Positions 39,326 to 64,000 of a DNA stretch of 64,000 nucleotides are shown here, piece after piece. The position numbers were made by a program, and so were the translations under genes. Every line of letters starts with the position of its first letter. The stretch's first letter is position 1. The notes below the pieces were generated by a model, which was not told where the DNA came from, ran no database searches, and saw only the letters and a program-made list of their open reading frames with translations. Source of the DNA: an uncultured Hormoscilla sp. (GTDB lineage Bacteria; Cyanobacteriota; Cyanobacteriia; Cyanobacteriales; Desertifilaceae); NCBI GenBank assembly GCA_963921275.4, contig OZ001293.3:3808001-3872000 (forward strand), written 5' to 3'.

Positions 39326-42300
39326 ATGAATCAAACAAAATCAACATCATTACCCAAAAATATGATTCTGGCTAATAAAGAAGAAATATCACTGCCTTTG
39401 ACAGAGGCCCAAAAACAACTCTGGATTTTAGCTCAACTAGATAAAGAGAGTTCAATTGCCTATAACCAATCGATAAATGTACAAATGCGCGGTCCACTGA
39501 GATTGGAGGCGATGAAGCGGGCGATAGAAAAAATTGTCGATCGGCACGAGGCTTTACGGACGAAAATTTTGCCTTCAGGCGATGGACAACAGGTTGGTCG
39601 GGCGGAGGAAATAGAGCTGCCAGTACTGGACTTTTCCAATGAAGAGAGTAGCAGGCTCCTTGAGGGAGCGCAGGATTGGTTTGAAAAGGAGAACCGAACG
39701 ATTTTTGATTTGAATGCAGGACCGCCTTGGCGCATGCAAGTCCTGAAGCTGGAAGAACAGCTTCATTGGCTGGTGTTTAGCGCTCATCATATAGGACTAG
39801 ATTTGCAATCGATGTTCTGGATTCTCCAGGAATTAGGAGTTCTGTATTCATCTGAGTGTCAGGAAAAACAGGTGACATTACAGGAACCAAAGCAATTTCA
39901 AGAATATATAAACTGGCAAGTAGGGCAAAGCCAGACTGGGGAAATGGCAGAGCATGAAGCCTACTGGTTGGATAAATTGGCAGGGGAACTCCCGGGATTA
40001 AACCTGCCGACAGACTGGAATCGCCCGGGGAATAGAGATTTTAAGATAAACAAGGAAACTGTTCGGCTAGATGATGATGTAAGTCACAAACTGGAAATCT
40101 TTAGCAGCCAAAGAGGTGGGCGGGTTGGAACGACTCTGCTGGCAGTATATATGACATTGCTGCATCGACTGACAGGACAGTCAGATATTATAGTAGGATT
40201 GCCGACTTCCGGACGGTACTTTGAAGGAAGCGAAGAAGTGGTTGGCTGCTGTGGAGATCTGTTGCCAATCAGAAGTTTGCTGGAGAGCAACCCCACATTT
40301 TCAGACTATCTCCGACAGATCGAGAAGGTATGGTTGGCAGCAGAGGCACATAAAAATTATCCCTTCGCGAGATTGTCTGAGGGACTGAATCGTCAAAATA
40401 ACTCTAGGAACTCGCCTCTGATAACAACATTGTTTAGCTGGGAAAGGCCAGTTAGCGAGCCGCAGATGTGGAAACTGGAAACAGCTTTATATCCTCAACC
40501 TCTCGATTTTAAGGATTATGACTTGTATGGTAAAATCATCGAGTCCAAAGAGAACCAGTTAGCATTGGAGGTAAGTTATAGCACGCAGTTGTTAGCAGCC
40601 TCAACGATTAAACGCTGGTTGGGACATTTTACAACTCTGCTAGAGGCAATATTAGAAAATCCCGATCGGAAGCTCTCGGAATTACCGTTGCTTACCAGGG
40701 AAGAATCCCAGCGGTTGTTAGTCGAATGGAATGACACGGAGTCGGATTATCCAGCGGATAAATGCGTTCATCAATTGTTTGAAGAACAGGTGCAGCTCCG
40801 GCCGGATGCCGTGGCAGTGGTGCTGGGAAACAAGCAACTGACTTATTCGGATTTAAATGACCGGAGCAATCAGCTGGCGCGTTACTTGGAAACTCTGGGT
40901 GTGGGACCAGAGGCGCTGGTGGGAGTTTGTGTAGAACGTTCTTTGGAAACGATCGTGGGGATGCTGGGAATTCTTAAAGCTGGGGGGGCTTATGTCCCCC
41001 TGGATCCCAGTTATCCTCAAGAACGTTTGGCATATATGTTGCATGATTCGGGGCTGAAGGTGCTTCTGACGCAGGATAAGTTTGTTAATTCATTGCCAGA
41101 ATATCATCACAAGCTGGTTTGTTTGGATGGAGATTGGGGAGTAATTGAGAAATACAGCAAGGAAAATAAAGAAACAGATGTAAAACCAAATAATCTGGCT
41201 TATGTAATATATACGTCAGGGTCTACAGGGAAACCAAAGGGTGTATTAAGTGCGCACCCGGGACTGTGCAATCTGGCATGGGCCTTCAAGAATATATTTA
41301 ATGTCGGACCAGAAGCTCGTCTTCTTCAGTTTGCTTCTTTAAGCTTTGATGCCTCAGTAGAAGAGATTTTTACGGCTGTCACATCGGGAGCGAGATTGGT
41401 TCTAGGAACAAAAGATAGTTTACTCTTAGGACATAATTTGCTACAGTTGTTGCGGGAACAGGGGGTTACTCACGCGACAATAGGACCGGCGGCTTTAGCA
41501 GTGTTGCCTCCAGAAAAATTGCCATGCTTAAATGTATTGATTGTGGCTGGAGAGGCGATATCTAGCGAGGTGGTCAGGAAATGGTCTTCGGGACGACAAT
41601 TTTTTAACGCTTACGGTCCTACTGAAGCGACTGTTTGTGCTACGGTAGCTGAGGTTGCCGATGCTAGCCAAAAGCCGCCGATCGGTCGCCCCATTCCTAA
41701 TGCTAAGGTTTACATCCTTGACGAACATCTGCAACCGGTACCGATCGGCGTGCCTGGGGAACTTCATATTGGTGGAGTTGGGTTATCTAGGGGCTATCTT
41801 AATCGTCCGGAGTTGACGGATAAAAAATTCATTCCTAACCCTTTTAGTGACGAGAAAGGATCGCGCCTCTACAAAACAGGAGACTTAGCTCGTTACCGAG
41901 AGGATGGTAATATCGAATTTATCGGCAGGATAGACTACCAAGTAAAAATTCGCGGTTACCGGATAGAACTGGGAGAAATTGAAGCATTGTTAAGCCGTAA
42001 CCCGGAAGTGCGGGAAGCGGTGGTGATTCAGAGGGAGGACCAACCGGGCGATCGGCGTCTAGTAGCTTATGTGGTCCCAGAAGATGATAACCGAGAGGTG
42101 GCGCGAGCAGATGATAATGAAACTGCTGTCGAACTCTGGCCTTCTGTGGCGGAATACTACGTATATGATGAATTGTTGTATTACGCCATGACCAACGATG
42201 AGCGCCGCAATCAGAGCTATCAAGTGGCTATTAACCAGTCGGTCAAGGATAAGGTGGTGGTCGAAATTGGCACGGGAAAAGATGCGATTTTAGCAAGGTT

Positions 42301-43687: not shown

Positions 43688-43912
43688 CACAGGTAGCCGG
43701 TATTGCCAGCAAGTAAAGTGTATTGCTGGCAAGTCAGTGGTCATGTTCTGGTAGAACCGGGAAAAATTGAGTAAAAATACGGATGGACAGGTTCGCAAGA
43801 GGATGAGAAGAATAGATGATGCAAACAGAGGATGAGCGGAGAATGAATAATCAGGAAATAGCGGCGATCGCCATGTCAGGTCATTGGCCAGGGGCCAAAA
43901 ATGTAGAAGAAT
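43663..43912 (+). repeat. direct repeat of the NRPS end / PKS start (second copy about 46512-46770)
   Basis: AGACATCGTTCTAGGAAAAAATAG...GTAGAAGAATA present twice. Confidence 0.9.
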
Positions 43913-44133
43913 AATTCCCGAACCCTTTGGCAGGCAGATCCAGGGAACGAATCCCACCCAGAAACCAGGTAATTTCGGCGAAACCTGGTTTCTTAATTCT
44001 GGCATTTAGAAAATATTCTTATATCATGTCTGGGGAATTACCCTCAATTAAGAAGCGACTCTCACCTTCTAGAGGATCTCGCGTTACCGTGCGATCGGGC
44101 TAAGTTGTCACCTCTTCTCTGTCATATCAATCG

Positions 44134-44253
44134 GGGTGCATCTCACTTTCGCACGGGCGAAGCATTCCGATAGGATATCTGTTAATTTATGTCAGAGATT
44201 GTCGCCGGAATGCTTCGCCCCTACAGGTATCTTTGTAAATATGAGATGCACCC
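44134..44253. mobile_element. MITE with internal REP-like hairpin
   Basis: IRs GGGTGCATCTCA / TGAGATGCACCC; flanking TATCAAT direct repeat; internal GGGCGAAGCATTCCG...CGGAATGCTTCGCCC. Confidence 0.75.
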
Positions 44254-44639
44254 TATCAATAGACAAGGGAGTGTGGGGGAGGGGGGCGGCGCTTTCAGGG
44301 GTATGTTTTTAATATTTGGGTGAAAATGAGACTTGGTAGAGGGGGAAGACAGGTAGACTTTGAAGATTCTGATGACGAAATAATGAGCTTGCTCCCTCGA
44401 CTAGAACTTAGGGAACTGCCAAAAATAAATTATCCCAAAATTGGCGAAAATAGGCTTTTTTTTACTCGCTCTGGGGAACTGCTCCCGTGGCGCTAGTTTG
44501 GGGATTTTTTATGCGGATTTCCCTTATTAGTGCAAGAGTGGCTACCTAATTGGAAATTGCCTCGCCGCCAGAGTAATGCTTGTACTTTCTCCTTTGGGTG
44601 ATGACGGGATTTTAAGCTTTTCTGCCGCCGGAATTTATG

Positions 44640-45953
44640 ATTCTTGGCTTGACCGATCGTCAGGCTTCCGGTTGAAGTGGGCATGACTCTAAGAAAAATA
44701 AATTCCCTTTGTAAGTGTCTGATGTGCGATCCGATTTCATTATCTGTAGGCTTTGTCAGAGGCGATCGCCTCGGGAGGTGGAACTGTTGCAGTGCCATAG
44801 AGGCCGAGCTCTGGTCGGGCTCTCCGGTAGAGATTGCTTCGTACCTCGCAACGCTACGCGGTTCGAGATTGCTTCGTACCTCGCAACACGGCTGCGCCTA
44901 CGCGGTTTGAACAAGTGAACTCAAAATCCACAGATCACATCATTATAGCATTGTTGATTAACATTTGCAATATAAAAATAATTTGGCACTTGCACTTACA
45001 TGAGAGGCTGGGAACATACTCTTTTCATGTGCTGGGCATCTCAGGACTGACGGTTGAAGGCCACGGCTATCACCGGTAGAAAGCAGGACAAAAACGATTG
45101 CCCGTAAAGATTTGTTACAGCCCGACAGTGTCGCAGAAATATGGCTTATGGTAGAAGTGGAAATCACATAAAGAGAAAATAGATTAGCCTTGTAAGTATG
45201 TCAGATGTGCGATCCTATTTCAGAAGGTGTAGGCTTTGAGGTGGGAGAGGCTCACAGGAGGTGGAACTGTTGGAGAGCAATAATGGCCGCGCCATCGAAG
45301 GTTTCACCGGTAGTTGAGGGCTCGGGAACATACTCATCTCCGGCATCACAACTTGGACAAAAGAAGGCCCCCACCGGTAGATAGCTGGCCAAAAACTGCT
45401 CGACAAGGGATATGTAAAGAATCGTTACAGATTGAAAGAGTCGCAGCAAATCGGGCTTATGGTAGAAGTAGTAATGACGCCAAAAAAATCTTGCCGTTGG
45501 AAGTATGTCAGATGTGTGATCCGATAGAGCAGGCGAGGTCTGTAGTTTGAGGCATAAAGTTATGGCTAAAGGAGTGGTGAATGAACTTGCTTATGAGGGG
45601 TTGACGCCGGTGCAGTCGGCAACGCCATCGCAGGTTTCACCGGTAGTTGAGGGCTCGGGAACATACTCATCTCCGGCATCACAACTGAGGATGGACAAAA
45701 GAAGGCCCCCACCGGGAGATAGCTGGCCAAAAACTGCTCGACAAGGGATATGTAAAGAATCGTTACAGATTGAAAGAGTCGCAGCAAATCGGGCTTATGG
45801 TAGAAGTGGTAATGACGCAAAAAAAATATCTTACCGTTGGAAGTATGTCAGATAGGATAGAGCAGGCGAGGTCTGTAGTTTGAGGCATAAAGTTATGGCT
45901 AAAGGAGTGGTGAATGAACTTGTTTATGAGGGGTTGACGCCGGTGCAGTCGGC
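44640..45953. repeat. about four diverged copies of a ~310-330-bp unit
   Basis: 45290-45620 vs 45623-45953 near identical. Older copies share GGGAACATACTC, GGCTTATGGTAGAAGT and/or (GTCA/TCT)GATGTGCGATCC. Confidence 0.8.
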
Positions 45954-46090
45954 CAGGCTAGATAACAGGTATCGGAGTTGTAATCAGCAAAGCCTGGGAA
46001 ATTGGTCAGAACAGCAGGCAAAAAGTTAGTTGTGGTAAGAGGATCCCGATCCTGTATGAATGGGAAAGGTGATACGGAGAAACTATAAGA

Positions 46091-46310
46091 ATGCTTCAAG
46101 ACTTGGATAAAACATTAGAAGAACTGCTTAAAAACGAATTACCACCTCCGGTGATATCCCCCCCGGATGGGAAGTCAGTCACGATTAGTTTTTCAACTCC
46201 TGACAAAGATTTTGCTACCAGAGTTGAGCTGCCAGCAATAGACCTGTTCCTCTATAACGTGCGGGAAAACATGGAATTGCGGACTGCCCCCTGGTCAGTG
46301 GAACGGTCCA
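46091..46310 (+). pseudogene. DUF4255 (Afp16/Pvc16-like contractile injection system cap protein) N-terminal fragment
   Basis: MLQDLDKTLEELL...ISFSTPD...PAIDLFLYNVRENMELR; fused to duplicated PKS sequence. Confidence 0.75.
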
Positions 46311-46511
46311 AGGCAGAACCTGATATCGGGTGTAGAATCGATTTCTAGGTTTTCAGATGAGGAGTTGTTAGCTGAAGGTGTCAAGCCGGAATTGTTGAGT
46401 AACGATGATTACGTTAGAGCCGGGGGAGTGCTGTCAGACATTGATCTGTTTGATGCCAGTTTCTTGTGAGTCCTAGCGAAGCGAAGCTAATGGATCCCCA
46501 GCGATGTTCTT
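46311..46511 (+). repeat. degenerate duplicate of PKS 5' coding sequence (about 46773-46981)
   Basis: GGCAGAACCTGATATCGGG...GATGTTCTT with small deletions. Confidence 0.9.
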
Positions 46512-46672
46512 AGACATCGTTCTAGGAAAAAATAGCACAGGTAGCCGGTATTGCCAGCAAGTAAAGTGTATTGCTGGCAAGTCAGTGGTCATGTTCTGGT
46601 ATAACCGGGAAAAATTGAGTAAAAATACGGATGGAGAGAGTGGACAGGTTCGCAAGAGGATGAGAAGAATAG

Positions 46673-49600
46673 ATGATGCAAACAGAGGATGAGCGGAGAA
46701 TGAATAATCAGGAAATAGCGGCGATCGCCATGTCATGTCGTTTGCCAGGGGCAAAAAATGTAGAAGAATATTGGCAGAACCTGATATCGGGTGTAGAATC
46801 GATTTCTAGGTTTTCAGATGAGGAGTTGTTAGCTGAAGGTGTCAAGCCGGAATTGTTGAGTAACGATGATTACGTTAGAGCCGGGGGAGTGCTGTCAGAC
46901 ATTGATCTGTTTGATGCCAGTTTCTTTGGCATGAGTCCTAGCGAAGCGAAGCTAATGGATCCCCAGCAGCGCATGTTCTTAGAATGTGCATGGGAGGCAA
47001 TAGAACAGGCGGGTTATAACCCAGACATATATGATGGTCTAATAGGTGTATATGCAGGGATAGGAATAAATACATATTTAATTAACAATATTTACCAAAA
47101 TCAGGAGATAATGAAGTTGGTGAATCTGCATCAATTGGTGACAGCCAATGATAAGGATTATTTGCCGACCAGAGTATCATACAAGCTGAACCTGAAGGGG
47201 CCAAGTATAAACGTGAATACGGCATGTTCAACTTCATTGGTAGCGGTTCACTTGGCTTGTCAAAGTTTGTTGAATGGTGAATGTGACATGGCTTTGGTAG
47301 GTGGAGTGTCAGCGAGAATTCCTCACAAAGTAGGTCACCTGTACGAAGAAGGAATGATATTATCACCAGATGGACATTGTCGAGCTTTTGATGCGGGTGC
47401 AAAAGGGACAGTAGGGGGAAATGGAGTAGGAATAGTGGTCCTGAAACGATTGTCAGATGCGATCGCGGAAGGAGACGCAATCCATGGGATAATCAAAGGT
47501 TCAGCTATTAATAATGATGGTTCGTTGAAAATCGGATATACTGCTCCTAGCATAGATGGTCAAGCGGCGGTGATTGCTGAAGCCCAAGCAGTAGCGGGGG
47601 TAGAACCAGAAACGATTAGTTATATAGAAGCACATGGGACGGGAACGGAATTGGGAGACCCCATTGAAATCGCAGCACTGAAGCAGGCTTTTGCAAAGAA
47701 GAAGGATAAGAAAAACTTCTGCGCGATCGGGTCAGTAAAAACAAATATCGGTCATACTGATGCGGCATCTGGGGTGGCTAGCTTAATTAAAACGGTGCTA
47801 GCGCTGAAGCACGAAGTTATCCCTCCGAGCTTGCATTTTAACAAGCCAAATCCTAAGATTGATTTTGCAAACAGTCCTTTTTATGTAAATGCCGAACTAT
47901 CGGAATGGAAAAGCAATGGGGTGCCCCGTCGTGCAGGAGTTAGCTCTTTTGGAATTGGCGGGACTAATGCTCACATAATATTAGAAGAAGCCCCGCCGGT
48001 AGAAGCATCAGGAGCATCCCGACAAGCGCAAATTATGGTAATGTCAGCGAAGACAAGCACGGCCCTAGATCGGATGAGCGAAAATCTCGCTGTCTATTTA
48101 GAGCAAAACCCAGAAGTTAAGATCGCCGACGTGGCATATACTCTGGGGGTGAGTCGCAAGGAATTTAACTACAGACGGATGCTGGTTTGTCGGCAGGGCG
48201 AGGAGGCGGCGCGGACCCTAAGAGCATTAGATGGACAGCAAGTTTTCACCAATAGGATCGAAGATCGAGAGCGACCGGTTGTATTTATGTTTTCCGGACA
48301 AGGGGCTCAGTATGTAAATATGGGCCTGGGGATATATAAAAGTGAATCGGTTTTTGCAGAGCAAGTAGACCGCTGTGCGGAATTACTTTGGCCAGAATTA
48401 GGACTGGATCTGCGCCAGCTCCTTTATCCGACTGCTGAAAAGGCGGAGGCGGCTGTTTCACAACTGCAAGAAACGAAAATAGCACAAATAGCGATATTTG
48501 TTATCGAGTATGCCTTGGTACAGCTATGGCGCGAGTGGGGAATAGAACCAGAAGCGGCGATCGGCCATAGTATAGGGGAATATGTGGCAGCATGTATAGC
48601 AGGAGTTTTCTCCTTAGAAGATGCCTTGTCTTTGCTGGTGGCGCGAGGCCAGTTGATGCAGTCAATGGCCAAGGGGGCGATGCTTTCCATTCCGCTGCCA
48701 AAAGCAGAAGTGCAAGGGAGATTGGGAACTGAACTATCATTAGCAACAATTAACAGTCCATCTCGTTGCGTAGTTTCGGGTCCAGATGCAGCAGTGGCGG
48801 CTTTGGAAAAACAACTAGCATCGGAAAATATTCAAAGTCGTCGCCTGCACACTTCCCATGCTTTCCATTCCCAAATGATGGACCCGATGTTAGCAGAATT
48901 TGCAGGGCGGGTAAAGCAAGTTACTCTCCATCCTCCGGAAATTCCCTACATATCTAACCTGACTGGCACCTGGATAAGGGTAACCCAGGCGACAGATCCC
49001 AACTATTGGGTACAGCATTTGCGTCAAACGGTGCTGTTTGCACCGGGTTTGGAAAATTTATTGTCGGACCCCGATCGAGTCTTGCTGGAAGTAGGTCCGG
49101 GACGAACCTTGAGTACCTTGGCGAAAAGACATCCCGATAAGTCTGCCTCCCAGTTGGTCCTCACCTCCCTGCGCCATCCTCAAGAAGAATTGGCAGATCT
49201 GGATTTTCTGCTCGCCACTTTGGGCAATTTATGGTTAGCTGGAGTTAAGGTGGACTGGTTGGGATTCTACAGCCAGCAGCGACGCCATCGCTTGCCCTTG
49301 CCTACCTATCCCTTCGAACGCCAGCGTTACTGGATTTCACCTCAAAAGCAGCTTGAAAAAGTTGTTGACAGTAAGACAGAGGCAGGAAAAAAGCAAGATA
49401 TTGCCGATTGGTTTTACATGCCGACTTGGAACCGGTCCCTACTGGGGGCTGGCAGGAAATTGCCCGATCGCACTCTCCTGTTTATTGATGAGTATGGTAT
49501 AGGTTCTGAACTGGCAAGTAAGCTGCGATCGCAAGGTAAAGAGGCGATCAGGGTGAAGATGGGGGAATCCTTTGCGGAACTGGGCGAGGACCTGTATAGT

Positions 49601-51610
49601 ATCAATCCCAGGGAACCCAAGGACTACGAGACATTGTTCGCGGAACTACCGGAAATTCCCCAGACAATCGGACATATATGGAGTATGGTAGCCGACTACC
49701 AGCCATGCGGCTGGAAAGGAATTGAAGGGGCCCTAGATCGAGGCTTTTACAGTCTGCTGTTCCTGGTGCAAGCATTGGAGAAACAGAACTTAAATGGCGA
49801 GTTTCAACTGGCAGTCATCTCTAATGGGTTGCAAAATGTGACCGGACAGGAACGGTTGCTTCCGGAACAGGCCACGCTCATAGGACCGGTTAAAACTATC
49901 CCCCAGGAATGCCCTACCATTAACTGTAGGAGTATTGATATCGAAATTCCGACAACCAGCAACGGTCATTCAAGGGAAATGATAGAGCAATTGATGGCGG
50001 AGTTGGGCGCGAACTCCTCAGATGAGGCGATCGCCTATCGCGGACAGCATCGTTGGGTGCAAAGCTATGCACCCATACCCCTGTTAGATCCAGCAAATGA
50101 GGGGATCCAGCGATTAATGCCAGGTGGGGTATATATAATAACGGGGGGACTGGGAGGTATAGGACTGGTATTAGCAGAATATCTGGCTCAAACAGTCCAG
50201 GCCAAGCTGGTTCTAATTGGGCGATCGGCTTTTCCAGCGCGAAATCGCTGGTCGGAGTGGTTGGCCAGTCACGATAGGGGCGATCGCATCAGCAGCAAAA
50301 TTCATAAATTGCAAGCACTGGAAAAACTGGGAGCCCAGGTGTTATCATTATCGGCAGATGTTGCTGATTTCCAGCAGATGCAAAAGGCGATCGAGGGTGC
50401 AGAGCAGCATTTTGGTAAAGTTAACGGGGTCATCCACGCAGCTGGTCGGCCTGGTGGGGGCTTAATTCAGCAGAAAACCAGAGAAATTGCTGAAAAAGTT
50501 ATGGCTCCCAAGGTCAGGGGGACTCTCATTCTGGACGCCCTCCTCCAAGACAGACAGCTAGACTTCTTTGTTGTGGCATCTTCTCTAAATGCCGTTATTC
50601 CCGTCTTAGGTCAAGTTGACTATTGTGCTGCCAATGCTTTTCTGGACGCTTTCGCTCAGTATAGGACCGCAAAGGGGGCCTTTACCGTATCGATCGACTG
50701 GGATGCCTGGCAGGAAGTGGGGATGGCAGTGGATGCTGCCGAAAAATCACTTCTCACTGGCCCCAAACAAATTTCCCACCCACTATTCTCACGGGTCATG
50801 GTAGAGTCTGACGCGAGGCAGATATATATATCAAATCTAGGCGTCAGTCAAAACTGGCTGTTGCAGGAACATATAGTCATGGGGCAAGCAACAATGCCTG
50901 GGACTGGATACTTAGAAATAGTCAGGGCAGCTTGGGCAAAGATGACCCAGAAAGAAACAGCAGAACTGCGGGAAGTATTTTTCTTGAGTCCTTTAACTGT
51001 CAAAGCAGATGAAAACAAGGAAGTGAAGACGATTTTCACGAAAGCGGGAGATGGCTGGGAATTTGAGGTGGTAAGCTCGTTGAAGGGGCAATCAGAGCGA
51101 TGGCAGAAGCATTGTGAGGGAGAAATTTTTAGCCTAGATGTGGGCGATCGCGAGCAACTGGCTATTGAGGAAATAGAAGCAAAATGTCCAGAAGCAAAAC
51201 CAATTCCCGCCCCAGGGCAGGAACCCCAAGCAGGATTAATAGAATTTGGCCCCAGATGGGACAATGTCAAATGGGTAAAGTTTGGCGAAAATGAGGGATT
51301 GGCATTTCTGGAACTGCCGGAAAAGTTTATGGCTGACATCAAAGACTATAAATTACACCCAGCCTTATTAGATACGGGTACCGGTTTCATGGGATTGAAA
51401 AATATAGATGGCGCCTACCTGCCCTTTGGTTATAAAAAAGTCAAGGTCAAAGGACCGATACCAGCAAAAGCCTACAGCTATATAAGGCAAAACGCGCAAG
51501 ATGGGAAAGCGTCCAGTTTGAAAATGAATGTTACCATCGCAGACGAGATGGGAGAGGTGATGGTGGAGATAGAAGATTATACTCTGAGGCAGATAGAGCC
51601 AAGTAACTGA
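46673..51610 (+). CDS. type I PKS KS-AT(malonyl)-KR-DH, no ACP
   Basis: KS NTACSTS, HGTGT, KTNIGH; AT GHSIG and HAFH; KR GGLGGIG and YCAAN; DH HIVMGQATMP and HPALLD. Start may be 46700. Confidence 0.93.
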   Translation: MMQTEDERRMNNQEIAAIAMSCRLPGAKNVEEYWQNLISGVESISRFSDEELLAEGVKPELLSNDDYVRAGGVLSDIDLFDASFFGMSPSEAKLMDPQQRMFLECAWEAIEQAGYNPDIYDGLIGVYAGIGINTYLINNIYQNQEIMKLVNLHQLVTANDKDYLPTRVSYKLNLKGPSINVNTACSTSLVAVHLACQSLLNGECDMALVGGVSARIPHKVGHLYEEGMILSPDGHCRAFDAGAKGTVGGNGVGIVVLKRLSDAIAEGDAIHGIIKGSAINNDGSLKIGYTAPSIDGQAAVIAEAQAVAGVEPETISYIEAHGTGTELGDPIEIAALKQAFAKKKDKKNFCAIGSVKTNIGHTDAASGVASLIKTVLALKHEVIPPSLHFNKPNPKIDFANSPFYVNAELSEWKSNGVPRRAGVSSFGIGGTNAHIILEEAPPVEASGASRQAQIMVMSAKTSTALDRMSENLAVYLEQNPEVKIADVAYTLGVSRKEFNYRRMLVCRQGEEAARTLRALDGQQVFTNRIEDRERPVVFMFSGQGAQYVNMGLGIYKSESVFAEQVDRCAELLWPELGLDLRQLLYPTAEKAEAAVSQLQETKIAQIAIFVIEYALVQLWREWGIEPEAAIGHSIGEYVAACIAGVFSLEDALSLLVARGQLMQSMAKGAMLSIPLPKAEVQGRLGTELSLATINSPSRCVVSGPDAAVAALEKQLASENIQSRRLHTSHAFHSQMMDPMLAEFAGRVKQVTLHPPEIPYISNLTGTWIRVTQATDPNYWVQHLRQTVLFAPGLENLLSDPDRVLLEVGPGRTLSTLAKRHPDKSASQLVLTSLRHPQEELADLDFLLATLGNLWLAGVKVDWLGFYSQQRRHRLPLPTYPFERQRYWISPQKQLEKVVDSKTEAGKKQDIADWFYMPTWNRSLLGAGRKLPDRTLLFIDEYGIGSELASKLRSQGKEAIRVKMGESFAELGEDLYSINPREPKDYETLFAELPEIPQTIGHIWSMVADYQPCGWKGIEGALDRGFYSLLFLVQALEKQNLNGEFQLAVISNGLQNVTGQERLLPEQATLIGPVKTIPQECPTINCRSIDIEIPTTSNGHSREMIEQLMAELGANSSDEAIAYRGQHRWVQSYAPIPLLDPANEGIQRLMPGGVYIITGGLGGIGLVLAEYLAQTVQAKLVLIGRSAFPARNRWSEWLASHDRGDRISSKIHKLQALEKLGAQVLSLSADVADFQQMQKAIEGAEQHFGKVNGVIHAAGRPGGGLIQQKTREIAEKVMAPKVRGTLILDALLQDRQLDFFVVASSLNAVIPVLGQVDYCAANAFLDAFAQYRTAKGAFTVSIDWDAWQEVGMAVDAAEKSLLTGPKQISHPLFSRVMVESDARQIYISNLGVSQNWLLQEHIVMGQATMPGTGYLEIVRAAWAKMTQKETAELREVFFLSPLTVKADENKEVKTIFTKAGDGWEFEVVSSLKGQSERWQKHCEGEIFSLDVGDREQLAIEEIEAKCPEAKPIPAPGQEPQAGLIEFGPRWDNVKWVKFGENEGLAFLELPEKFMADIKDYKLHPALLDTGTGFMGLKNIDGAYLPFGYKKVKVKGPIPAKAYSYIRQNAQDGKASSLKMNVTIADEMGEVMVEIEDYTLRQIEPSN

Positions 51611-51713
51611 GTTAGGCGGGTTACGTGGAGCGTCTGCCAGTCAGGTGGAAGGTTACGTCGGGCGGGCGGATCGCCTGCCAGTCAGGTGGCGACAAGCAAG
51701 TTAAGGTGCAAAT

Positions 51714-53309: not shown

Positions 53310-53311
53310 CA

Positions 53312-54946
53312 ATGAAAAGTAGTTCTGATTTTTTATCGCACTTGGCATCGCAGGACATCCAAGTCTGGGCGGAAGGAGATCGCCTGCGTTGCAATGCGCC
53401 CAAGGGAGTGCTAACATCAGAGTTACGCTCTGAATTAACAGCTCGCAAGCAAGAAATGCTGGCCTATTTGCAGCAAAAAACAGAAGAGCCGAAGATTAGT
53501 AGGGTCTCCCGCAGTCAAGAAATCCCGCTATCCTGGACTCAGCAACGACTTTGGTTTCTAGATCGACTAGAAGGAGGAAGTAGTGCTGCTTATAATTTGT
53601 CAACGGCTTTAGAAATAAAAGGGCCATTAAATGTCAAGGCCCTAGAAAAGACATTGGCGGAAATGATAAGGCGTCACGAAACATTGCGGACCACTTTCCA
53701 GTTGGTAAATGGGACAGCAGTACAGGCGATCGAGACTCAGGTTTCCCTGGCATTACCGATAAGAGACTTACAGGAGTTGTCTGCAGAGGAAAAAAATGTG
53801 GAAGTGCGCAGGTTAGCGATCGCGGAAATTTCGCGGCCTTTCGATCTGGCCAAGGGACCGGTAATCAGAAATATATTGTTACGACTGGGAAAAACATCCC
53901 ACGTGCTGCTTTCTACCATCCATCATATTGTCTTTGATGGCTGGTCAACAGTAATATTCATTAAAGAATTGTCGAGTTTATATCAAGCCTTTGTCAAGGG
54001 CTTGCCTTCACCTTTGCCAGAGTTGCAGATCCAATATGCAGATTTTGCGGTCTGGCAGCGGGAGTGGCTGAAGGAGGATATCTTAAAACCTCAAATAGAG
54101 TACTGGAAAGAAAAACTAGCTTCAGCACCGCAATTATTGGCATTGCCAACCGATCGCCCCCGTCCTCAAATAGATAGCATGGGAGGAGATAGCGAGACAT
54201 TTAAGCTAAATAGTCAGATAATGGCAAAACTCAAAAATCTGACCAAGCAGTCTGGCTCAACTCTGTATATGATTTTGTTGGCAGCTTTCGCCACCTTACT
54301 CTATCGTTACAGCTCTCAAACAGACATCACGATCGGTTCCCCGATCGGAAACCGTTACCCGCAGGAGACGGAACCGCTAATTGGATTATTTATCAATACC
54401 CTGGTATTGCGGACAGAGATGAGTGAAAATCCTAGTTTTCTGGAACTGTTAAAACGGGTGCGCCAAGTAACCTTAGAAGCATACGAAAATCAGCACGTGC
54501 CCTTTGAGAAGTTGGTAGAGGAACTGAAGATCGAAAGAAACTTGAGTCGGAACCCGTTGTTTCAGGTATGGTACACTCTGCAAGATACGACAGTGGAAGG
54601 CTTGGAATTAACTGGTTTAGAAGTGCGGCCACTGGAATTTGAGAATCCCACGGCGATTTTCGATCTCGAATTAATTCTGGAATATATACCATCAGGTCTC
54701 AAAGGCCAGTTGAGATATAAAACAGATTTATTCGATCGGGCGACAATAGCGCAAATGGTTCGACATTTCCAGACATTGCTGGAAAGTATAGTGGCAGCTC
54801 CAGAACAGCAGCTGAATAATTTAAGACTCTTGACAGATGAAGAAACAGGAGGTTATACTATAGAAGACTTCTCAGAGGCGGATTTCAGCCCCCAGGAGTT
54901 CGAGAAGTTGATGATGGAAATTGGCAAGATAGCCGTGTCTTTGTAA
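53312..54946 (+). CDS. stand-alone condensation protein with TubC-type N-terminal docking domain
   Basis: IQVWAEGDRLRCNAPKGVLT; LSWTQQRLWFL; HHIVFDG; COM-like acidic tail. Confidence 0.9.
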   Translation: MKSSSDFLSHLASQDIQVWAEGDRLRCNAPKGVLTSELRSELTARKQEMLAYLQQKTEEPKISRVSRSQEIPLSWTQQRLWFLDRLEGGSSAAYNLSTALEIKGPLNVKALEKTLAEMIRRHETLRTTFQLVNGTAVQAIETQVSLALPIRDLQELSAEEKNVEVRRLAIAEISRPFDLAKGPVIRNILLRLGKTSHVLLSTIHHIVFDGWSTVIFIKELSSLYQAFVKGLPSPLPELQIQYADFAVWQREWLKEDILKPQIEYWKEKLASAPQLLALPTDRPRPQIDSMGGDSETFKLNSQIMAKLKNLTKQSGSTLYMILLAAFATLLYRYSSQTDITIGSPIGNRYPQETEPLIGLFINTLVLRTEMSENPSFLELLKRVRQVTLEAYENQHVPFEKLVEELKIERNLSRNPLFQVWYTLQDTTVEGLELTGLEVRPLEFENPTAIFDLELILEYIPSGLKGQLRYKTDLFDRATIAQMVRHFQTLLESIVAAPEQQLNNLRLLTDEETGGYTIEDFSEADFSPQEFEKLMMEIGKIAVSL

Positions 54947-54980
54947 AAACCCCGGGGGAAAAGCAGGAAGGAAAAGGGAG

Positions 54981-56579
54981 ATGAGTAAGGAGAAAGTATA
55001 TCTGAAACAAAACGTGCAAGCAGAGCCATTATTCAATCAATGGTATGCTTGGCCTTACTTGATAGCGCCAGCGACGGCGGCCATGTATATGGTGAACTCG
55101 TACTTCAAGATTATGGAATCATTCGTGGCAGCGCCGCAATTCCACGTTTCTGCTTTGCAAAATCCGAAAATGAAAGGGGGTCCGTTCATAAACTACGATG
55201 CTAGTAGAGCGCCAGAAATTAAGGCGCTGCTGGAAAAAACACAAGCAGAGCAAGAAGAACTGGTAGAGTTGGCAGCAGGACTGAAAGAATTGCATTTATT
55301 ATTAATGGAGGAAGCCAAAGGATATTCAATCGAGCCTCTGTATAAAAAAGTACCAGAAGTTTTGAAAGGTTATGTGGAACTGAGTTACGATCTGAACAAT
55401 CAACCGTCAGTTCGTTTGATAGAAGGATTATTGTACAGGAGTAAGTATTATAAAAAGTCATCTCAAAGCCTGTCCCTATCTTTGGTGGAACGAGACGATC
55501 GCCCGTTTATATTCAGTAGCCCCAGGCTAGAAGATGAAAAAAGTTTGCGTCTGCATACTCATTTCCATCATCAAGGGTTAGATGAGTTGTTCAAAATGAA
55601 ACAAATTCCTCAACCATTAGGTTTGATTGAGGAAGTCCTAGATATTAAGAACGGAGATCGGGGAAGTTTGTGGAAATCATTTTTTACAGAGGAAGCGCCA
55701 TCACCACTGAAGAAATATACAGAGGAACCGGTAAGGGTGCGTTATTTCGGTCATGCTTGCATTTTAATTGAATCAAAAGACATCAGCATTTTGTGCGATC
55801 CGCTGATTAGCTATAAGTATGATGGCGGAATTACTCGTTACACCTATGCAGATTTACCAGAAGTAATAGATTATATTTTAATTACCCACCAGCACCACGA
55901 TCACTGTATGTTGGAAACTTTGCTACAGCTGCGCCATAAAACGAAAACCGCGATCGTACCTAAAAATAATGGAGGTGAATTGGCAGATCCGTCGATGAAA
56001 TTGCTGTTGCAGAATATGGGTTTTCAGCAAGTAAAAGAGATTGAAGAAATGGAAACAATAGAGGTAGAAGGTGGCGGGATTACAGGTTTGCCTTTTTTGG
56101 GCGAACATGCAGATCTGAAGATTAGAACAAAAACAGCTTATTCGATTAATTTGCAAGATAAGACGATCGTGGTGGGAGCAGATTCAACAAATTGTGAATC
56201 CCAGCTTTATGATAAGATCGGGGAAGCTATGGGAAAAGTTGATATAGTCTTTTTGGGAGTCCAATGTGATGGCGCGCCATTAAGCTGGGCTTATGGAGGT
56301 TTGTTAATTAAACCATTAGCACGAAAAATGGACCATTCGCGGAAATCAAGTGGTTGTGACTACGAAAAGGCGATCGCCTTAATAGAGAGTTTGCATCCGA
56401 ACGAAGTATACGTGTATGCAATGGGGTACGAACCGTGGTTGAGTTATCTGATGTCTTTTGAAAATTACCAAGAGAGTCGCTCCTTTGCAGAGGCAAATAA
56501 ATTAGTATCGGAGTGTCAGAGTCGCGGGATAATATCGGAGAGATTGTTTGGGCAAAAAGAATTATATTTAAACAAATAG
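54981..56579 (+). CDS. CmlA-type MBL-fold diiron beta-hydroxylase
   Basis: VYLKQNVQAEPLFNQWYAW, GGPFI, VELSYDL, RYFGHAC, THQHHDH, PFLGEHADL and YVYAMG motifs; 532 aa. Confidence 0.85.
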   Translation: MSKEKVYLKQNVQAEPLFNQWYAWPYLIAPATAAMYMVNSYFKIMESFVAAPQFHVSALQNPKMKGGPFINYDASRAPEIKALLEKTQAEQEELVELAAGLKELHLLLMEEAKGYSIEPLYKKVPEVLKGYVELSYDLNNQPSVRLIEGLLYRSKYYKKSSQSLSLSLVERDDRPFIFSSPRLEDEKSLRLHTHFHHQGLDELFKMKQIPQPLGLIEEVLDIKNGDRGSLWKSFFTEEAPSPLKKYTEEPVRVRYFGHACILIESKDISILCDPLISYKYDGGITRYTYADLPEVIDYILITHQHHDHCMLETLLQLRHKTKTAIVPKNNGGELADPSMKLLLQNMGFQQVKEIEEMETIEVEGGGITGLPFLGEHADLKIRTKTAYSINLQDKTIVVGADSTNCESQLYDKIGEAMGKVDIVFLGVQCDGAPLSWAYGGLLIKPLARKMDHSRKSSGCDYEKAIALIESLHPNEVYVYAMGYEPWLSYLMSFENYQESRSFAEANKLVSECQSRGIISERLFGQKELYLNK

Positions 56580-56665
56580 GGGAGCAGTTGCGTAGGAGGG
56601 GCGTCTCGCCTGTCCGAGATGTAGGAGGGGCGTCTCGCCTGTCTACCAGTTGTGAGTTGTGAATA

Positions 56666-59600
56666 TTGAATATGGATATCAAAAATGTTAGAGATATATA
56701 CCGATTGTCGCCAGTACAAGAAGCGGTCCTGGGGGATGATCGGCCAGGTTGCGGTCAATTAATTTGTGAAGTGCGTGGAGAGCTAGATTTTGATAAATTA
56801 GAACAAGCTTGGCAACAGACGGTAGAGCAGCAGCCGGTGTTGCGAACCTTATTTGTCTGGAAAAACTTAGAACGTCCGCAGCAAGTTGTAGTCAAAAAAC
56901 TGAAAGTTGCACTATTAAAACAAGATTGTAGCGAATCGATAGAGAGTTTTCTTGAAAGGGAAAGAGAGCAGATGGTAAGGCAGGATGCCTTACCGCTGGC
57001 CAGACTAGCAGTTTGTCGGATGTCAGAACAAGTGCAGCAAGTGGTGATGACGTATCATAACTTAATTATGGACAAACATAGTAGTTATTTGCTTTTAAGG
57101 GAAGTATGGAGTAACTATGGCGATCGGACAATAAATAGAGAAGAAATTCCAGCGTTCAAAGATTATATAAGTTGGCTCAAAAAACAGGATCGCTCTAATG
57201 CGGAAGCTTTTTGGAGTCAGTGGTTAAAGGGAGTTTCTCCATCGACCCCATTGGCGATCGCGCGGTATGGGGGAACGGCGTCGGGTGACGATCGCGCTTC
57301 TGTAAAAATCCCAGCAGCGGTAGTATCATCGTGGCAGGCCGAATATCAGTTAAGCTTAAGCATACTGGTGCAAGGGGCTTGGGCTCTACTGTTGAGTCGC
57401 TATGGCGACTCGGAAGAGGTGGTATTTGGTCTGGAAGTAACTGGCCGTCCAGAGGCGCTTCCAGGATCGGAGTTCATAATAGGGGCTTTTCAGAACAGGC
57501 TACCAGTCCGAGTACGAGTTTGTCCGGATGTATCTGTAAGAACTTGGCTGGAAGAATTACAAGCGCAGCAAGCAGAACTACAGCAATATGCCTACAATTC
57601 GCTAGCACAAATACGAGATTGGAGTAAGATAAATAACTTAAGCTTATCTAGCTATGTAAGTTATGCTGCGGACAAGCCCGAAGAGTGGGTACAACTGCAG
57701 GATGACAGCAGTAGGGTGGGCAGTGCCCACCCTGCTTTAGGATGGCTCGAAAGTAGGGAAAGTCGAAATTGCCCGATCGCTCTAACGGCCCAGGGGTCTA
57801 AAGAATTAACTTTAGAAATAATATACGACCGGGCCCGGTTTGAGTCAGGGGCGATCGCGCGGTTACTGGGACATCTAGAAACTTTAATGACTGCCATGGC
57901 AACAAGGCCCGACGTTGCTCTAGAAAAGTTGCCATTATTAACAGACCGGGAACGGGAACAACTGGCCAAATGGAACGAAGGCCAAACAGATTATCCTCAA
58001 GATCGATGCATTCATCAACTAATTGCAGCGCAAGCAGAGCAGACTCCCGATCGGGTGGCGGTAGCATTTTCCGATTTTTCCGGAACGGTGCAGCAGCTCA
58101 CCTATGGGGAGTTGAATAAACGTGCCAACCAACTAGCTCATTACCTGCAAGGAATGGGGGTGGGACCGGATGTCCTAGTGGGGATTTGTGTAGAACGTTC
58201 CTTGGAGATGCTGGTGGGAATACTGGGGATATTGAAAGCAGGTGGTGCTTACGTACCAATAGACCCCGGCTATCCTTTTGAGCGGATATCCTTTATTTTG
58301 GGAGATGCGCAGCCTCCAGCATTGTTAACTCAAGAGCATTTAGAAGCAGAACTACCGGTCCATTGGGGACAGGTAATTTGTCTGGACGCGGAGTGGGAGG
58401 AAATAGCAGCAGAAAGCGAGTCCAATCCTAGCAGCAATGTTACCGCAGAGAATTTAGTTTATGTAATCTATACATCAGGATCGACAGGAAAGCCCAAGGG
58501 AGTTTTAGTAAGCCATCGAAATTTAGTCGATTCAACGATCAACCGCTGTGATTATTATCCAGAACCACCGCAATCTTTCCTGTTACTCTCTTCTTTTGCT
58601 TTCGATAGTTCCGTAGCAGGCATATTTTGGACGTTGTGCTGTGGTGGCAAGCTAGTACTGCCACCACAGCAGTTTCAGTCGGAACCAGAACAGCTGGCAA
58701 GCGCGATCGCCCAGCATCAAGTAGAATATTTGTTGAGCATACCTTCTCTGTATGCTGTAGTTTTGGAGCAAGCAGCGGAACTATCGGGACTGCGGGGAGC
58801 GATCGTGGCGGGAGAAGCATGTCCGGGGAAGCTAATCGAGCAACATCGCCAGTTACTACCAGATTGCGCTCTCTTTAATGAATACGGTCCCACAGAAGGG
58901 ACGGTATGGAGTACAGTTTATAACTGTCAAGATTGGCAACAGGAAATATCGGTGCCCATCGGACGCCCGATCGGCAATACTCAAATTTATATTCTCGATC
59001 GGCATCTGCAACCAGTACCGATCGGGATTAAAGGGGAACTGTATATCGGCGGTGCGGGGATCGCGCGGGGCTATCTGCAACGCCCGGAGTTAACGGAATC
59101 AAAATTCATTAGGGATCCTTTTAGCGATCGCCCCGGGGCCCGTCTCTATAGAACGGGAGATTGGGCTCGCTACCGAGAAGATGGTAATATCGAGTTCCTG
59201 GGTCGCATCGACGACCAAGTAAAGATTCGCGGCTACCGGATCGAACTGGGAGAAATTGAAGCTATCTTGGGACAGCATCAGGGAGTGGCTCAAACCGCAG
59301 TTATCGCCAGGTCGGAGGGCGATCGCCAACGTCTAGTAGCCTATATTGTCCCTTCGGAGGAGTCCGACGTGCCTAGTGCTAATGACCTCCGGGATTTCCT
59401 CAAGAGCAAGCTGCCAGAATATATGGTGCCAGCAAGGTTTGTGAGTCTGTCGGCCATGCCACTCACCCCTAATGGTAAGATCGACCGCCGCGCTCTCCCA
59501 GCACCAGAAGATGTAAATCCCAGTTCGGACTCGGGTTTTGCCGCGCCCCGATCGCCCCAGGAGGAATGCTTAGCAAGGATTTGGAGCGAACTGTTAAGGC

Positions 59601-61213
59601 TAAAACAAGTTAGTATTCACGACAATTTCTTTGAATTGGGTGGGGACTCGATCGTCAGCATTCAAATGATCGCCAGAGCAAATCAGGCGGGTTTAGCAGT
59701 CAATCCCAAACAACTCTTCGAGCATCAGACCATTGCTAAATTAGCAGCAGTTGCAGGTACGACCTCTGGAATTATTGCTCAACAGGGGATAGTTACGGGG
59801 GCGATGCCCTTAACCCCCATTCAACATTGGTTCTGGGAGCAAAATTTACCCGCACCGCATCATTTCAATCAATCAATCCTCTTAAAGGTATCGTCAAAGC
59901 TGAAACCGGAATTATTGCAGCAAGCGGTGCAGCAATTGCTAGTACATCACGATGCTGTGCGCCTGCGCGCTCAAGGTTGGCCTCCCAAACAGGCGATCGC
60001 TCCAGTAGACGAGACAGGACCCTTTGCAGTCGTGGACTTGTCCGATATTGAGGCGCTAAAACAGCCCCAGGCGATCGCCTCTAGAGCCACAGAAATTCAG
60101 GCTAGCTTGAATTTGACAGATGGACCGATAATGCGGGTAGTGTTATTTAAGTTGGGCAGGTCGGGGCCCGATCGCCTGTTCTTAGTCATCCATCATCTAG
60201 CCGTTGATGGCATCTCCTGGCGCATCTTGCTGGAAGATATGAAGAACGCTTGCGAACAAGGATCGCGGGGAGAAACCATCCAATTGCCGCCGAAAACCAC
60301 TTCTTTCCCCGATTGGGCCGAGCGGCTAATTGCATATGCTGAATCTCCAACAGTAAACCAAGAACTAGATTATTGGCAAGCGCAATCCCCATCGGAGGTG
60401 ACGGCGATGCCAGTAGATCTACCAGAGGGGAAAGGCAATAACACTGTTGCTTCCAGTAAAACATTGTCAGTATCCCTGAATGCAGAACAAACCCGCCTGC
60501 TGTTGCAAGAAGTACCGTCGGCTTACAATACTCAAATTAACGAGGTGCTGCTCACAGCATTAACGCAAAGTTGGGTAAAATGGACTGGTGCTAGGGGACT
60601 GCTAGTGGAACTAGAAGGTCACGGACGCGAACAACTATGGGAAGATGTAGATTTGTCGCGGACGGTGGGTTGGTTTACAACTCGATTTCCCGTTTGCTTG
60701 CAACTCGGCGCAACTGTTAACCAACCAGGGGAGGCGCTCAAATCAATCAAGGAACAATTGCGGCAGATTCCGGCCAAAGGCATTGGTTACGGGATCTTGC
60801 GTTATCTCAGTCCGGATGGGACCATGCGATCGCAGCTAAAAAAACAGACGCAACCGGAGGTAAGCTTTAATTACCTGGGGCAATTTTATTTTTACCAGTC
60901 AGAATCGATTCTGCTAGGATTTGCCGGAGAAGAGACAGGTCCGATACAAAGCCCATTAGGAAAGCGCCGGTATCTACTGGAACTGAACGGATTGGTGGTT
61001 GAAGGTAAGTTACAATTAGATTGGACTTACAGCGAAAATATTCACAAAGAAACTACAATAGCACGGCTAGCCCAGGATTTTCTGGAAGCATTGAACTCGA
61101 TTATAGACCATTGCGTTGCGCCGGAGACGGGCAGCTATACACCTTCAGACTTTCCGGATGTAGCATTAAGCCAGTCAGAACTGGACGATTTGGTGGCCGA
61201 AATAAATTGGTAA
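56666..61213 (+). CDS. NRPS: degenerate C (interface-like)-A(His-like)-T-E
   Basis: C lacks HHxxxDG (YHNLIMDK); hand-read A code DSALIAEVWK; T LGGDSI; E HHLAVDGISW, EGHGRE and FNYLGQ. Confidence 0.9.
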   Translation: MNMDIKNVRDIYRLSPVQEAVLGDDRPGCGQLICEVRGELDFDKLEQAWQQTVEQQPVLRTLFVWKNLERPQQVVVKKLKVALLKQDCSESIESFLEREREQMVRQDALPLARLAVCRMSEQVQQVVMTYHNLIMDKHSSYLLLREVWSNYGDRTINREEIPAFKDYISWLKKQDRSNAEAFWSQWLKGVSPSTPLAIARYGGTASGDDRASVKIPAAVVSSWQAEYQLSLSILVQGAWALLLSRYGDSEEVVFGLEVTGRPEALPGSEFIIGAFQNRLPVRVRVCPDVSVRTWLEELQAQQAELQQYAYNSLAQIRDWSKINNLSLSSYVSYAADKPEEWVQLQDDSSRVGSAHPALGWLESRESRNCPIALTAQGSKELTLEIIYDRARFESGAIARLLGHLETLMTAMATRPDVALEKLPLLTDREREQLAKWNEGQTDYPQDRCIHQLIAAQAEQTPDRVAVAFSDFSGTVQQLTYGELNKRANQLAHYLQGMGVGPDVLVGICVERSLEMLVGILGILKAGGAYVPIDPGYPFERISFILGDAQPPALLTQEHLEAELPVHWGQVICLDAEWEEIAAESESNPSSNVTAENLVYVIYTSGSTGKPKGVLVSHRNLVDSTINRCDYYPEPPQSFLLLSSFAFDSSVAGIFWTLCCGGKLVLPPQQFQSEPEQLASAIAQHQVEYLLSIPSLYAVVLEQAAELSGLRGAIVAGEACPGKLIEQHRQLLPDCALFNEYGPTEGTVWSTVYNCQDWQQEISVPIGRPIGNTQIYILDRHLQPVPIGIKGELYIGGAGIARGYLQRPELTESKFIRDPFSDRPGARLYRTGDWARYREDGNIEFLGRIDDQVKIRGYRIELGEIEAILGQHQGVAQTAVIARSEGDRQRLVAYIVPSEESDVPSANDLRDFLKSKLPEYMVPARFVSLSAMPLTPNGKIDRRALPAPEDVNPSSDSGFAAPRSPQEECLARIWSELLRLKQVSIHDNFFELGGDSIVSIQMIARANQAGLAVNPKQLFEHQTIAKLAAVAGTTSGIIAQQGIVTGAMPLTPIQHWFWEQNLPAPHHFNQSILLKVSSKLKPELLQQAVQQLLVHHDAVRLRAQGWPPKQAIAPVDETGPFAVVDLSDIEALKQPQAIASRATEIQASLNLTDGPIMRVVLFKLGRSGPDRLFLVIHHLAVDGISWRILLEDMKNACEQGSRGETIQLPPKTTSFPDWAERLIAYAESPTVNQELDYWQAQSPSEVTAMPVDLPEGKGNNTVASSKTLSVSLNAEQTRLLLQEVPSAYNTQINEVLLTALTQSWVKWTGARGLLVELEGHGREQLWEDVDLSRTVGWFTTRFPVCLQLGATVNQPGEALKSIKEQLRQIPAKGIGYGILRYLSPDGTMRSQLKKQTQPEVSFNYLGQFYFYQSESILLGFAGEETGPIQSPLGKRRYLLELNGLVVEGKLQLDWTYSENIHKETTIARLAQDFLEALNSIIDHCVAPETGSYTPSDFPDVALSQSELDDLVAEINW

Positions 61214-61225
61214 GGAAGATCGATC

Positions 61226-64000: not shown

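Follow-up and report, generated by a model that had tools for sequence, protein, structure and literature searches.

The DNA analyzed here is a stretch of 64,000 nucleotides (the window, G000:C1:3808001-3872000 of the source genome G000; a window number plus 3808000 gives the position on G000:C1), which from position 39326 onward carries a hybrid nonribosomal peptide synthetase (NRPS)–polyketide synthase (PKS) cluster. We consider it probable that nine genes form a complete assembly line, conserved across genera, which starts on its first open reading frame, ORF1, without a donor and leads to a five-unit depsipeptide. The product predicted from the domains would consist of gamma-(O-methyl-Tyr), beta-OH-D-His, Ile, a D-Ile-like residue, and a small hydroxy acid, and it is probably cyclic and glycosylated. 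The line reads C*-A-OMT-T / KS-AT-KR-DH / ER-ACP / C / diiron beta-hydroxylase / I-A(His)-T-E / C-A(Ile)-T / C-A(Ile-like)-T-E / C-A(keto acid)-KR-T-TE, where C*, the condensation (C) domain of ORF1, and I, an interface domain, are discussed below; A, T, E, and TE are adenylation, thiolation, epimerization, and thioesterase domains. It extends 25 kb past the window to the thioesterase, and the cluster as a whole reaches about 40 kb beyond; features located there are given in continued window numbering.

Seven of the ORFs start in the window, all on the + strand (39326-43687, 46673-51610, 51714-53309, 53312-54946, 54981-56579, 56666-61213, and 61226 onward). In this a preliminary description of the window was confirmed, and the Pfam domains are those it had implied. 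In the source genome the reading frames of the nine assembly genes are all open. The same description held that the catalytic motifs are retained. This applies to most of them, since the KS Cys/His/His, AT Ser, KR Tyr, DH His/Asp, the ER NADPH motif, the carrier serines, and the HH motifs of the E domains are present; the C-domain His of ORF6, the C-domain Gly of ORF1, and a Glu of ORF5, which is exchanged to Gln, are the exceptions. ORF3 ends with an acidic docking peptide and ORF4 begins with a TubC_N docking domain, and three COM-like tails (ORF4, ORF6, and ORF9) face three DCL-type N-termini (ORF6, ORF7, and ORF10). Under the pairing rules that we assume for ORF3/ORF4 and for the COM-like tails, the docking ends match and thus support the colinear order.

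An orthology scan of 185,579 genomes with the N-terminal part of ORF6 gave 10 loci, six of them orthologous at 68–75% (four Microcoleus, one Tolypothrix, and one metagenome-assembled genome, MAG). Four orthologous clusters (G041–G044; two Microcoleus, a Tolypothrix, and a MAG) were read end to end, and counts out of five refer to these together with the source genome; the G093 cluster was read in part, with its ORF10 outside the stretch inspected, and L010 over 23 kb only. All nine assembly genes are found at 66–86% identity in each of the four clusters. The dN/dS ratio, a check proposed in the preliminary description, is 0.10–0.26 in all 36 gene pairs, values that are averages over long branches. 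The gene order is colinear in G042 and the source genome and shuffled in Microcoleus and Tolypothrix. The family is rare, with orthologue-level matches in 1 of 400 genomes of the class and 2 of 400 of the phylum, all among the six. Short ORF2 remnants aside, the cluster was not found in any of four same-genus genomes (G001–G004, 93–97% complete). These remnants, 88–93% identical in DNA, occur in three of the four (G003:C5:13178-13506, G004:C24:117485-119246, and G002:C2:2399952-2400089).

The preliminary description had noted that ORF1 starts with a C domain, and it postulated a residue X delivered by upstream modules, the pathway being split across loci. In ORF1 (39326..43687, +; C*-A-(type III O-methyltransferase, O-MT)-T) the Gly of the HHxxxDG motif is replaced by Leu or Phe in all five clusters, which all keep HHxxxD, and no N-terminal docking domain was found. 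Among the nearest non-orthologous relatives of this C domain (43–50%) are C domains that immediately follow an aminotransferase or an aminotransferase-monooxygenase domain, and also the first C domains of large NRPSs. In a quick IQ-TREE tree of 39 C domains it lies on a long branch within a post-aminotransferase clade (SH-aLRT 100), two members of which directly follow an aminotransferase(-monooxygenase). The domain therefore likely descends from post-aminotransferase C domains and would be the relic of a lost beta-amino-acyl starter.

We considered two alternatives to a relic. First, upstream modules at another locus could deliver residue X to ORF1, as the kinship with C domains that follow KS-AT-ACP-aminotransferase modules and the mobile gene order among relatives would allow. 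A genome-wide domain census with a search for aminotransferases and fatty acyl-AMP ligases (FAAL), the look-up of upstream modules that the preliminary description had suggested, found no intact PKS-fused aminotransferase as donor in the source genome; its FAAL loci and remaining PKS loci are broken up and its other NRPS/PKS loci mostly fragmented, whereas the present cluster is whole. One of these is a decayed FAAL / A-T / KS-AT-KR locus at G000:C1:214185-223461, the KS of which is 63–75% identical to that of ORF2. In the G041–G044 clusters neither a further NRPS gene nor a loading module was found by end-to-end reading and a C-domain census, the latter serving as the donor look-up in these genomes. 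As the same nine genes, without a loading module, form a closed set in four distant genomes, residue X and the split pathway are unsupported, and we regard a remote donor as highly improbable.

Second, the C domain of ORF1 could be active as a starter, with acyl-CoA or an acyl carrier protein (ACP) of primary metabolism supplying an acyl group. Such a line would yield an N-acylated lipodepsipeptide, with hydrolysis or lactonization on the His hydroxyl as the mode of release, and the serine hydrolases of the cluster may remove the acyl cap. Retention of HHxxxD in all five clusters, the conservation of the domain (69–72%), a clade that includes acceptors of amino-acyl chains, and a beta-lactamase-family hydrolase in every cluster speak for an active starter domain, as does corramycin, for which the pathway account in PMC10099666 proposes an acylated precursor that is later deacylated. 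However, the exchanged Gly and the missing docking domain argue against it, no FAAL/ACP starter is present in any cluster read end to end, and the hydrolases inspected begin without an obvious signal peptide (by eye). Overall we judge an active starter unlikely and prefer the relic; the pathway is likely self-contained, without starter genes from elsewhere in the genome.

Several observations weigh against this preferred interpretation. The C domain of ORF1 is conserved more strongly than the interface domain of ORF6 (58–68%), though less than the active C domains (75–84%), and with HHxxxD kept it may still be active. Its placement is that of the quick tree. Concerning the substrate, the A-domain code of ORF1 in the source genome, DAETIAAVC, is otherwise found only in its 98% twin P0001 among 120 homologues, and three orthologues with what we take to be a Phe-type code (DAWTIAAVC; G041, G043, and G044) keep the methyltransferase at 86–88%, which a role as O-MT does not explain.

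Further codes of the orthologues are DASTIAAVC in G093, presumably Tyr-type, and DASIIAAVC in G042. The residues given for the codes of ORF1, ORF6, ORF7, and ORF9 are presumed assignments throughout. The methyltransferase of ORF1 (PRMT5-like in Pfam) is inserted late in the A domain, has a GxGxxA S-adenosylmethionine motif, and is 71% identical to the methyltransferases of CrpC and VatN. In the description of interrupted A domains in PMC8341866 the GxGxxA form marks type III Tyr O-MTs (Family 2b). O-methyl-Tyr is our best call for the residue of ORF1.

The PKS part consists of ORF2 (46673..51610, +; KS-AT-KR-DH by Pfam and motifs) and ORF3 (51714..53309, +; ER-ACP). The catalytic residues of KS, AT (malonyl-type), KR, DH, and ER are complete in all five clusters, so that a fully reduced 4-amino-5-arylpentanoyl unit is predicted. 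A methylated aromatic residue extended by malonate and fully reduced to a gamma-amino acid had been proposed before, and A code, methyltransferase likeness, and KR/DH/ER motifs support it.

ORF4 (53312..54946, +) combines its TubC_N domain with a stand-alone C domain, in which HHxxxDG is intact, and a COM-like tail. ORF6 (56666..61213, +) consists of an inactive C-like domain followed by A-T-E. Its leading C domain derives from the DCL type, and in four of the five clusters the catalytic His is missing from it (G044 has it). We predict from these motifs that it is an interface domain and ORF4 the working C domain; the layout is paralleled by the glidomide case in section 14 of PMC13638107. The A-domain code DSALIAEVW of ORF6, which we read as His-type, is identical in all five clusters. 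The same code occurs after a stand-alone C domain and a 358-aa gene in an unrelated NRPS-PKS cluster (L086 and L087; G244:C22:15001-48157), probably a siderophore cluster.

ORF5 (54981..56579, +), between ORF4 and ORF6, encodes a CmlA/FrsH-type nonheme diiron beta-hydroxylase. It is homologous over its whole length to FrsH/CmlA (8a90, E 5e-120; 4jo0, E 3e-109), has the CmlA_N domain and the metallo-beta-lactamase fold, and shares the HxHxDH, Glu, and Asp ligands with CmlA, FrsH, and HynC. The Glu of the GMEC motif is replaced by Gln in all seven orthologue rows (two of which come from the same genome), whereas Glu is found in 17 and Gln in two of 19 non-orthologous cyanobacterial loci. We take this Glu to be an iron ligand, and a hydroxylase without it weighs against the proposed function. 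Its position before the I domain points to His as the hydroxylation target. The target is however not fixed, since HynC hydroxylates Tyr and Leu modules according to the account in PMC8252469, in which His is not among the substrates. With dN/dS of 0.10–0.15, ORF5 is the lowest of the nine genes. The earlier reading of beta-hydroxy-D-His followed by Ile agrees with the His code and E domain beside the hydroxylase and with the Ile-type code of ORF7.

A beta-hydroxy-His residue could also make the product a metallophore. A C / hydroxylase / I-A-T layout is used in metallophore lines, and a TonB-dependent receptor is a criterion for metallophore clusters. No such receptor is encoded in any of the five clusters; the nearest in the source genome is about 370 kb off and none was found in G042. 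Only one chelating residue is predicted. The glidomide line cited above has the C / hydroxylase / I-A-T layout, and beta-OH-His is listed among the chelating groups of peptide metallophores in PMC12971057; the hydroxylases described there are of the Fe/alpha-ketoglutarate type, in contrast to the diiron type found here. Taken together, a metallophore is very unlikely.

For the modules after Ile the preliminary description had spoken of further modules only. They exist, and there are just two, for a D-Ile-like residue and a hydroxy acid, followed by the thioesterase. ORF7 (61226..64453, +, ending 453 bases past the window; DCL-type C-A-T) has the code DAFFLGVTF and ORF9 (67718-72463; C-A-T-E) the code DAFFLGLTF, both presumably Ile-type, and ORF9 has an E domain. 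In the ORF7 orthologue of G042 (L024:4752-8906) we observed a natural module variant with the code DFWNIGMVH, which we take to be Thr-type, and an inserted FkbM-type methyltransferase. A different multi-module NRPS in a congener (L094/L095; G004:C27:25177-43715) has two A domains with the code of ORF9, and one stretch of it is 83% identical in DNA, which suggests A-domain exchange within the genus. This NRPS was considered as a product reference and discarded, as it has no known product.

ORF10 (83017-89229; C-pseudo-Asub-A-KR-T-TE) is CrpD-like. Its A domain has Pro838 in all five clusters where the amine-binding Asp is expected, together with a Gly-Met motif, a pseudo-Asub, and an embedded KR. 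Section 8 of PMC7923214 gives a hydrophobic residue for Asp, the Gly-Met motif, and the pseudo-Asub as hallmarks of depsipeptide modules. The pocket contains Thr and Arg, unlike that of CrpD, and the substrate is likely a small or polar keto acid; pyruvate would be the best guess. It counts against the proposed unit that the ORF10 code was not found in any reference of known substrate. When metagenomes were scanned with the ORF10 A domain, 26 loci were obtained, with identities of at most 62%; three of them share the pocket code and have no known product. In other contigs, this keto-acid pocket or one similar to it is present in A-KR-T genes that are stand-alone or short (L056, L057, L058, and L078). 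The Ser, Asp, and His residues of the TE domain are present.

From these parts the following biosynthesis can be proposed. ORF1 would load and O-methylate Tyr (Phe in some relatives), and ORF2 and ORF3 would add malonate and reduce it fully to the 4-amino-5-arylpentanoyl unit. The C domain of ORF4 would couple this gamma-amino unit to His on ORF6, which would be beta-hydroxylated in trans by ORF5 and epimerized. ORF7 would then add Ile and ORF9 the D-Ile-like residue, and ORF10 would reduce the small keto acid and esterify the resulting hydroxy acid. As there is no N-terminal cap, the simplest outcome of TE release would be attack of the free gamma-amine on the hydroxy-acid carbonyl, giving a 17-membered ring; alternatively, the chain could be released by hydrolysis or lactonization on the His hydroxyl. 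For the aglycone, if it is a ring containing lactate, the calculated [M+H]+ is 657.361 (O-methyl-Tyr type) or 627.350 (Phe type), to which a linear form would add 18.011, a sugar 162.053 or 132.042, and a carbamoyl group 43.006; the expected losses of single residues are 153.054, 113.084, and 205.110 or 175.100. More tentatively, and with considerable doubt, the cluster could represent a new glyco-depsipeptide family that combines the 17-membered ring, a reduced arylalanine-derived gamma-amino acid, beta-hydroxy-D-His, a lost lipid starter, a His-acting Gln-variant hydroxylase, extracellular lipid-carrier glycosylation, and hydrolases docking via a COM-like tail.

No published cluster or product matching this one was found in the full-text literature, a search limited to few subscription journals, without supplements and MIBiG. 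The preliminary description had likewise recognized no known cyanobacterial product, and within the same limits no matching compound turned up. The closest systems share one part each, and none is the same family. Cryptophycin biosynthesis is similar in CrpC, with a Tyr-type A domain (62%) and the same O-MT (71%), and in the terminal pseudo-Asub-A-KR-T-TE module of CrpD (52% in A, 47% in KR). The names CrpC and CrpD were assigned to genes on the Nostoc sp. ATCC 53789 plasmid NZ_CP046706.1 by strain, size, and neighbours. The PKS start, halogenase, and P450 of cryptophycin are lacking here, and the keto-acid pocket of CrpD differs from that of ORF10 (VAIFLG.. versus PGIWLT..). Cryptophycin starts on a PKS and contains neither His nor a gamma-amino acid, and its pathway has no such hydroxylase. 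VatN of the vatiamide pathway, to which the comparison was limited, is 72% identical to ORF1 in the O-MT and 62% in the A core, and it differs by a second methyltransferase (N-MT) and a TE. In tubulysin biosynthesis TubC/TubF combine an amino acid with KS-AT-KR-DH-ER to a fully reduced gamma-amino acid and use TubC_N docking, as here; the C-methyl, thiazole, and pipecolate of tubulysin are lacking. The C domain of ORF1 is 48% identical to, and in the quick tree in the same clade as, one in NZ_LR882964.1, presumably a microginin-type cluster. Microginin/puwainaphycin-type clusters differ by FAAL, ACP, and a KS-AT-ACP-aminotransferase module, all absent here, and by the altered motif of ORF1.

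Corramycin, as described in the pathway account cited above, shares beta-hydroxy-D-His on an E-bearing His module, the hybrid NRPS-PKS nature, and a proposed hydrolase/flippase maturation, but has 12 modules, a FAAL-ACP-C-HAD-T (FkbH) start, a linear product, and N-methyl-His, and that account (PMC10099666) identifies no hydroxylase. ClyF of the chlorosphaerolactylate pathway, compared by its description in PMC7923214, ends in the same C-A-KR-T-TE depsipeptide module and converts pyruvate to lactate; where ORF10 has Pro in place of the Asp, ClyF has Val, and it joins a fatty acyl chain. The myxoglucamides described in PMC13638107 share a hybrid line, a gamma-amino acid, an interface domain, a beta-hydroxylase, and glycosylation, and differ by a Glu-derived vinyl gamma-amino acid, a FAAL start, and an alpha-ketoglutarate dioxygenase. 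In the text examined, PMC6520454 describes no such cluster, though its supplements may list it as an unnamed region.

Every domain type is known and orphan clusters are common; the combination of parts is new and the predicted scaffold apparently undescribed. What looked like a fragment in a symbiont-like genome can now be read as a conserved and closed pathway, for which a defined structure is predicted that is testable in the free-living Microcoleus and Tolypothrix relatives. To our knowledge His-containing cyanopeptides are few, and none with hydroxy-His was found in the literature searched. If the prediction is true, a His-containing depsipeptide scaffold is added to cyanobacterial chemistry, the diiron beta-hydroxylases likely gain a new substrate, and the pathway was shortened by loss of its starter module.

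The accessory genes start with a carbamoyltransferase (64434-66323), whole only in the source genome and fragmentary in G041 and G043, and a membrane-anchored protein that is SGNH-like by motif only (66466-67707). They continue with two beta-lactamase-family hydrolases (74790-77036 and 79096-80892), between which lie an insertion sequence (IS) and a micro-ORF, a GDSL-like protein (81011-82195), a split hydrolase (89407-90942), a further hydrolase in three copies (90996-97539), and a CxxCH protein (97817-99010; L002:16818-18011). A GT2 glycosyltransferase (99157-100107), a flippase-like LPG_synthase_TM protein (100171-101139), a GT-C-like membrane protein (101358-103079, minus strand; Atlas score 0.99), and an MFS transporter (103079-104440) complete the cluster. 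All of G041–G044 carry the SGNH-like, CxxCH, and flippase-like genes as well as the tailed hydrolase, and three of the four carry the GT-C-like gene and the MFS transporter, the G042 contig ending there. Drawing on the logic of lipid-carrier glycosylation in other peptide clusters, the GT2/flippase/GT-C trio suggests glycosylation after export. The MFS transporter probably exports the product and the trio probably glycosylates it, for which the His hydroxyl would be the obvious sugar acceptor. The probable role of the serine hydrolases is processing or inactivation of the product, with self-protection and off-loading as further candidates. Every cluster has at least one beta-lactamase-family hydrolase. 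Two hydrolases and the free micro-ORF share a C-terminal tail (L001:15915-16034, 17968-18042, and 19795-19890), found also in G041–G044 and G093, which by eye resembles the COM-like helices of ORF4, ORF6, and ORF9. A comparison of the hydrolase with the PDB gave N-terminal matches only and no cyclase assignment. In the CxxCH protein the motif is invariant in an alignment of 118 rows; the five best matches of the predicted fold (pLDDT 85) are all cytochrome c'/P460, but at Z below 8 (best 6.9, rmsd 4.2, 126 aligned, Foldseek E 9e-3).

The preliminary description had also missed that 2,985 noncoding bases lie between ORF1 and ORF2. This spacing includes a 2.9-kb insert (43810..46672), at the borders of which the ORF1 end and the ORF2 start are duplicated and the body of which is 92% like G000:C1:4215252-4216457. 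In X5, a sponge metagenome run from a separate study that is about 99% alike over ORF1, position 43809 is joined directly to 46673, showing the insert to be recent. The unique part of the insert has matching contigs in X1, X3, and X4, which rules out an assembly artefact. A promoter scan of the insert was uninformative (9 sites versus 4.5 +/- 2.3 expected). An ORF-less repeat 5' of ORF1 (38117..38771, +), labeled group II intron-like by sequence likeness, has about 320–400 similar pieces elsewhere in the source genome, is absent in X5, and gave no Rfam match at the gathering score. The decay of the surroundings reported earlier is real, with a kinase in pieces downstream, an IS, this repeat upstream, and fragmented NRPS/PKS loci elsewhere. 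Within the cluster, the 3' end of ORF9 is repeated in nine tandem copies of 239 bp at 72314-74464 (L001:11315-13465), and a triple 2,483-bp repeat comprises the hydrolase gene and the start of the CxxCH gene (L002:9997-18011; about 3.8-fold depth in X1, contig depth being a weak measure).

These elements raise the question whether the cluster is real but silenced in this symbiont-like lineage, which would be compatible with the depsipeptide proposed for the family. The insert could cut transcription of ORF2–10, and with the intron-like element, the IS, the tandem amplifications, and the split hydrolase it lies within or beside the cluster. The COM-like tail of ORF9 departs at two otherwise conserved positions, and the cluster was not found in the four congeners. 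As to inactivating lesions downstream, which the preliminary description had named as part of a refuting condition, the nine ORFs of the source genome are open, but ORF10 of the sister run X5 has three single-base deletions (L088:8755, 9915, and 10821; depth 11) that shift the frame of the terminal module, a further point against a functional line. X5 diverges by 3–5% in ORF10 and about 1% in ORF1. Moreover, hisB (PF00475) is absent in all five genus members and in G042, and present in all 14 controls and in four of five other cluster carriers; the genome account in PMC6520454 likewise reports the lack of hisB in Hormoscilla. It is possible that a His-consuming line operates in a His auxotroph, or that a nonhomologous HisB exists. 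On the other side, the nine ORFs are open, insertions lie between genes only, dN/dS is low, though averaged over long branches, and X1/X3 contigs are identical to ORF1, to most of ORF2 through the start of ORF6, and to most of ORF10. No RNA data set was listed as containing the cluster, an outcome that is neutral as to its expression. This lineage may be in the course of losing the cluster, and we regard silencing in the source genome as rather unlikely.

Some minor observations concern neighbouring genes. A 530-aa protein without a Pfam family (L020:2993-4582) is encoded in the clusters of Microcoleus and Tolypothrix and is missing from those of the source genome and G042 as read, and a flavoprotein is common to the G042 and G044 clusters only. 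Upstream in the window, a group II intron reverse transcriptase adjoins an aconitase-family gene (24664-26001 and 26452-27771).

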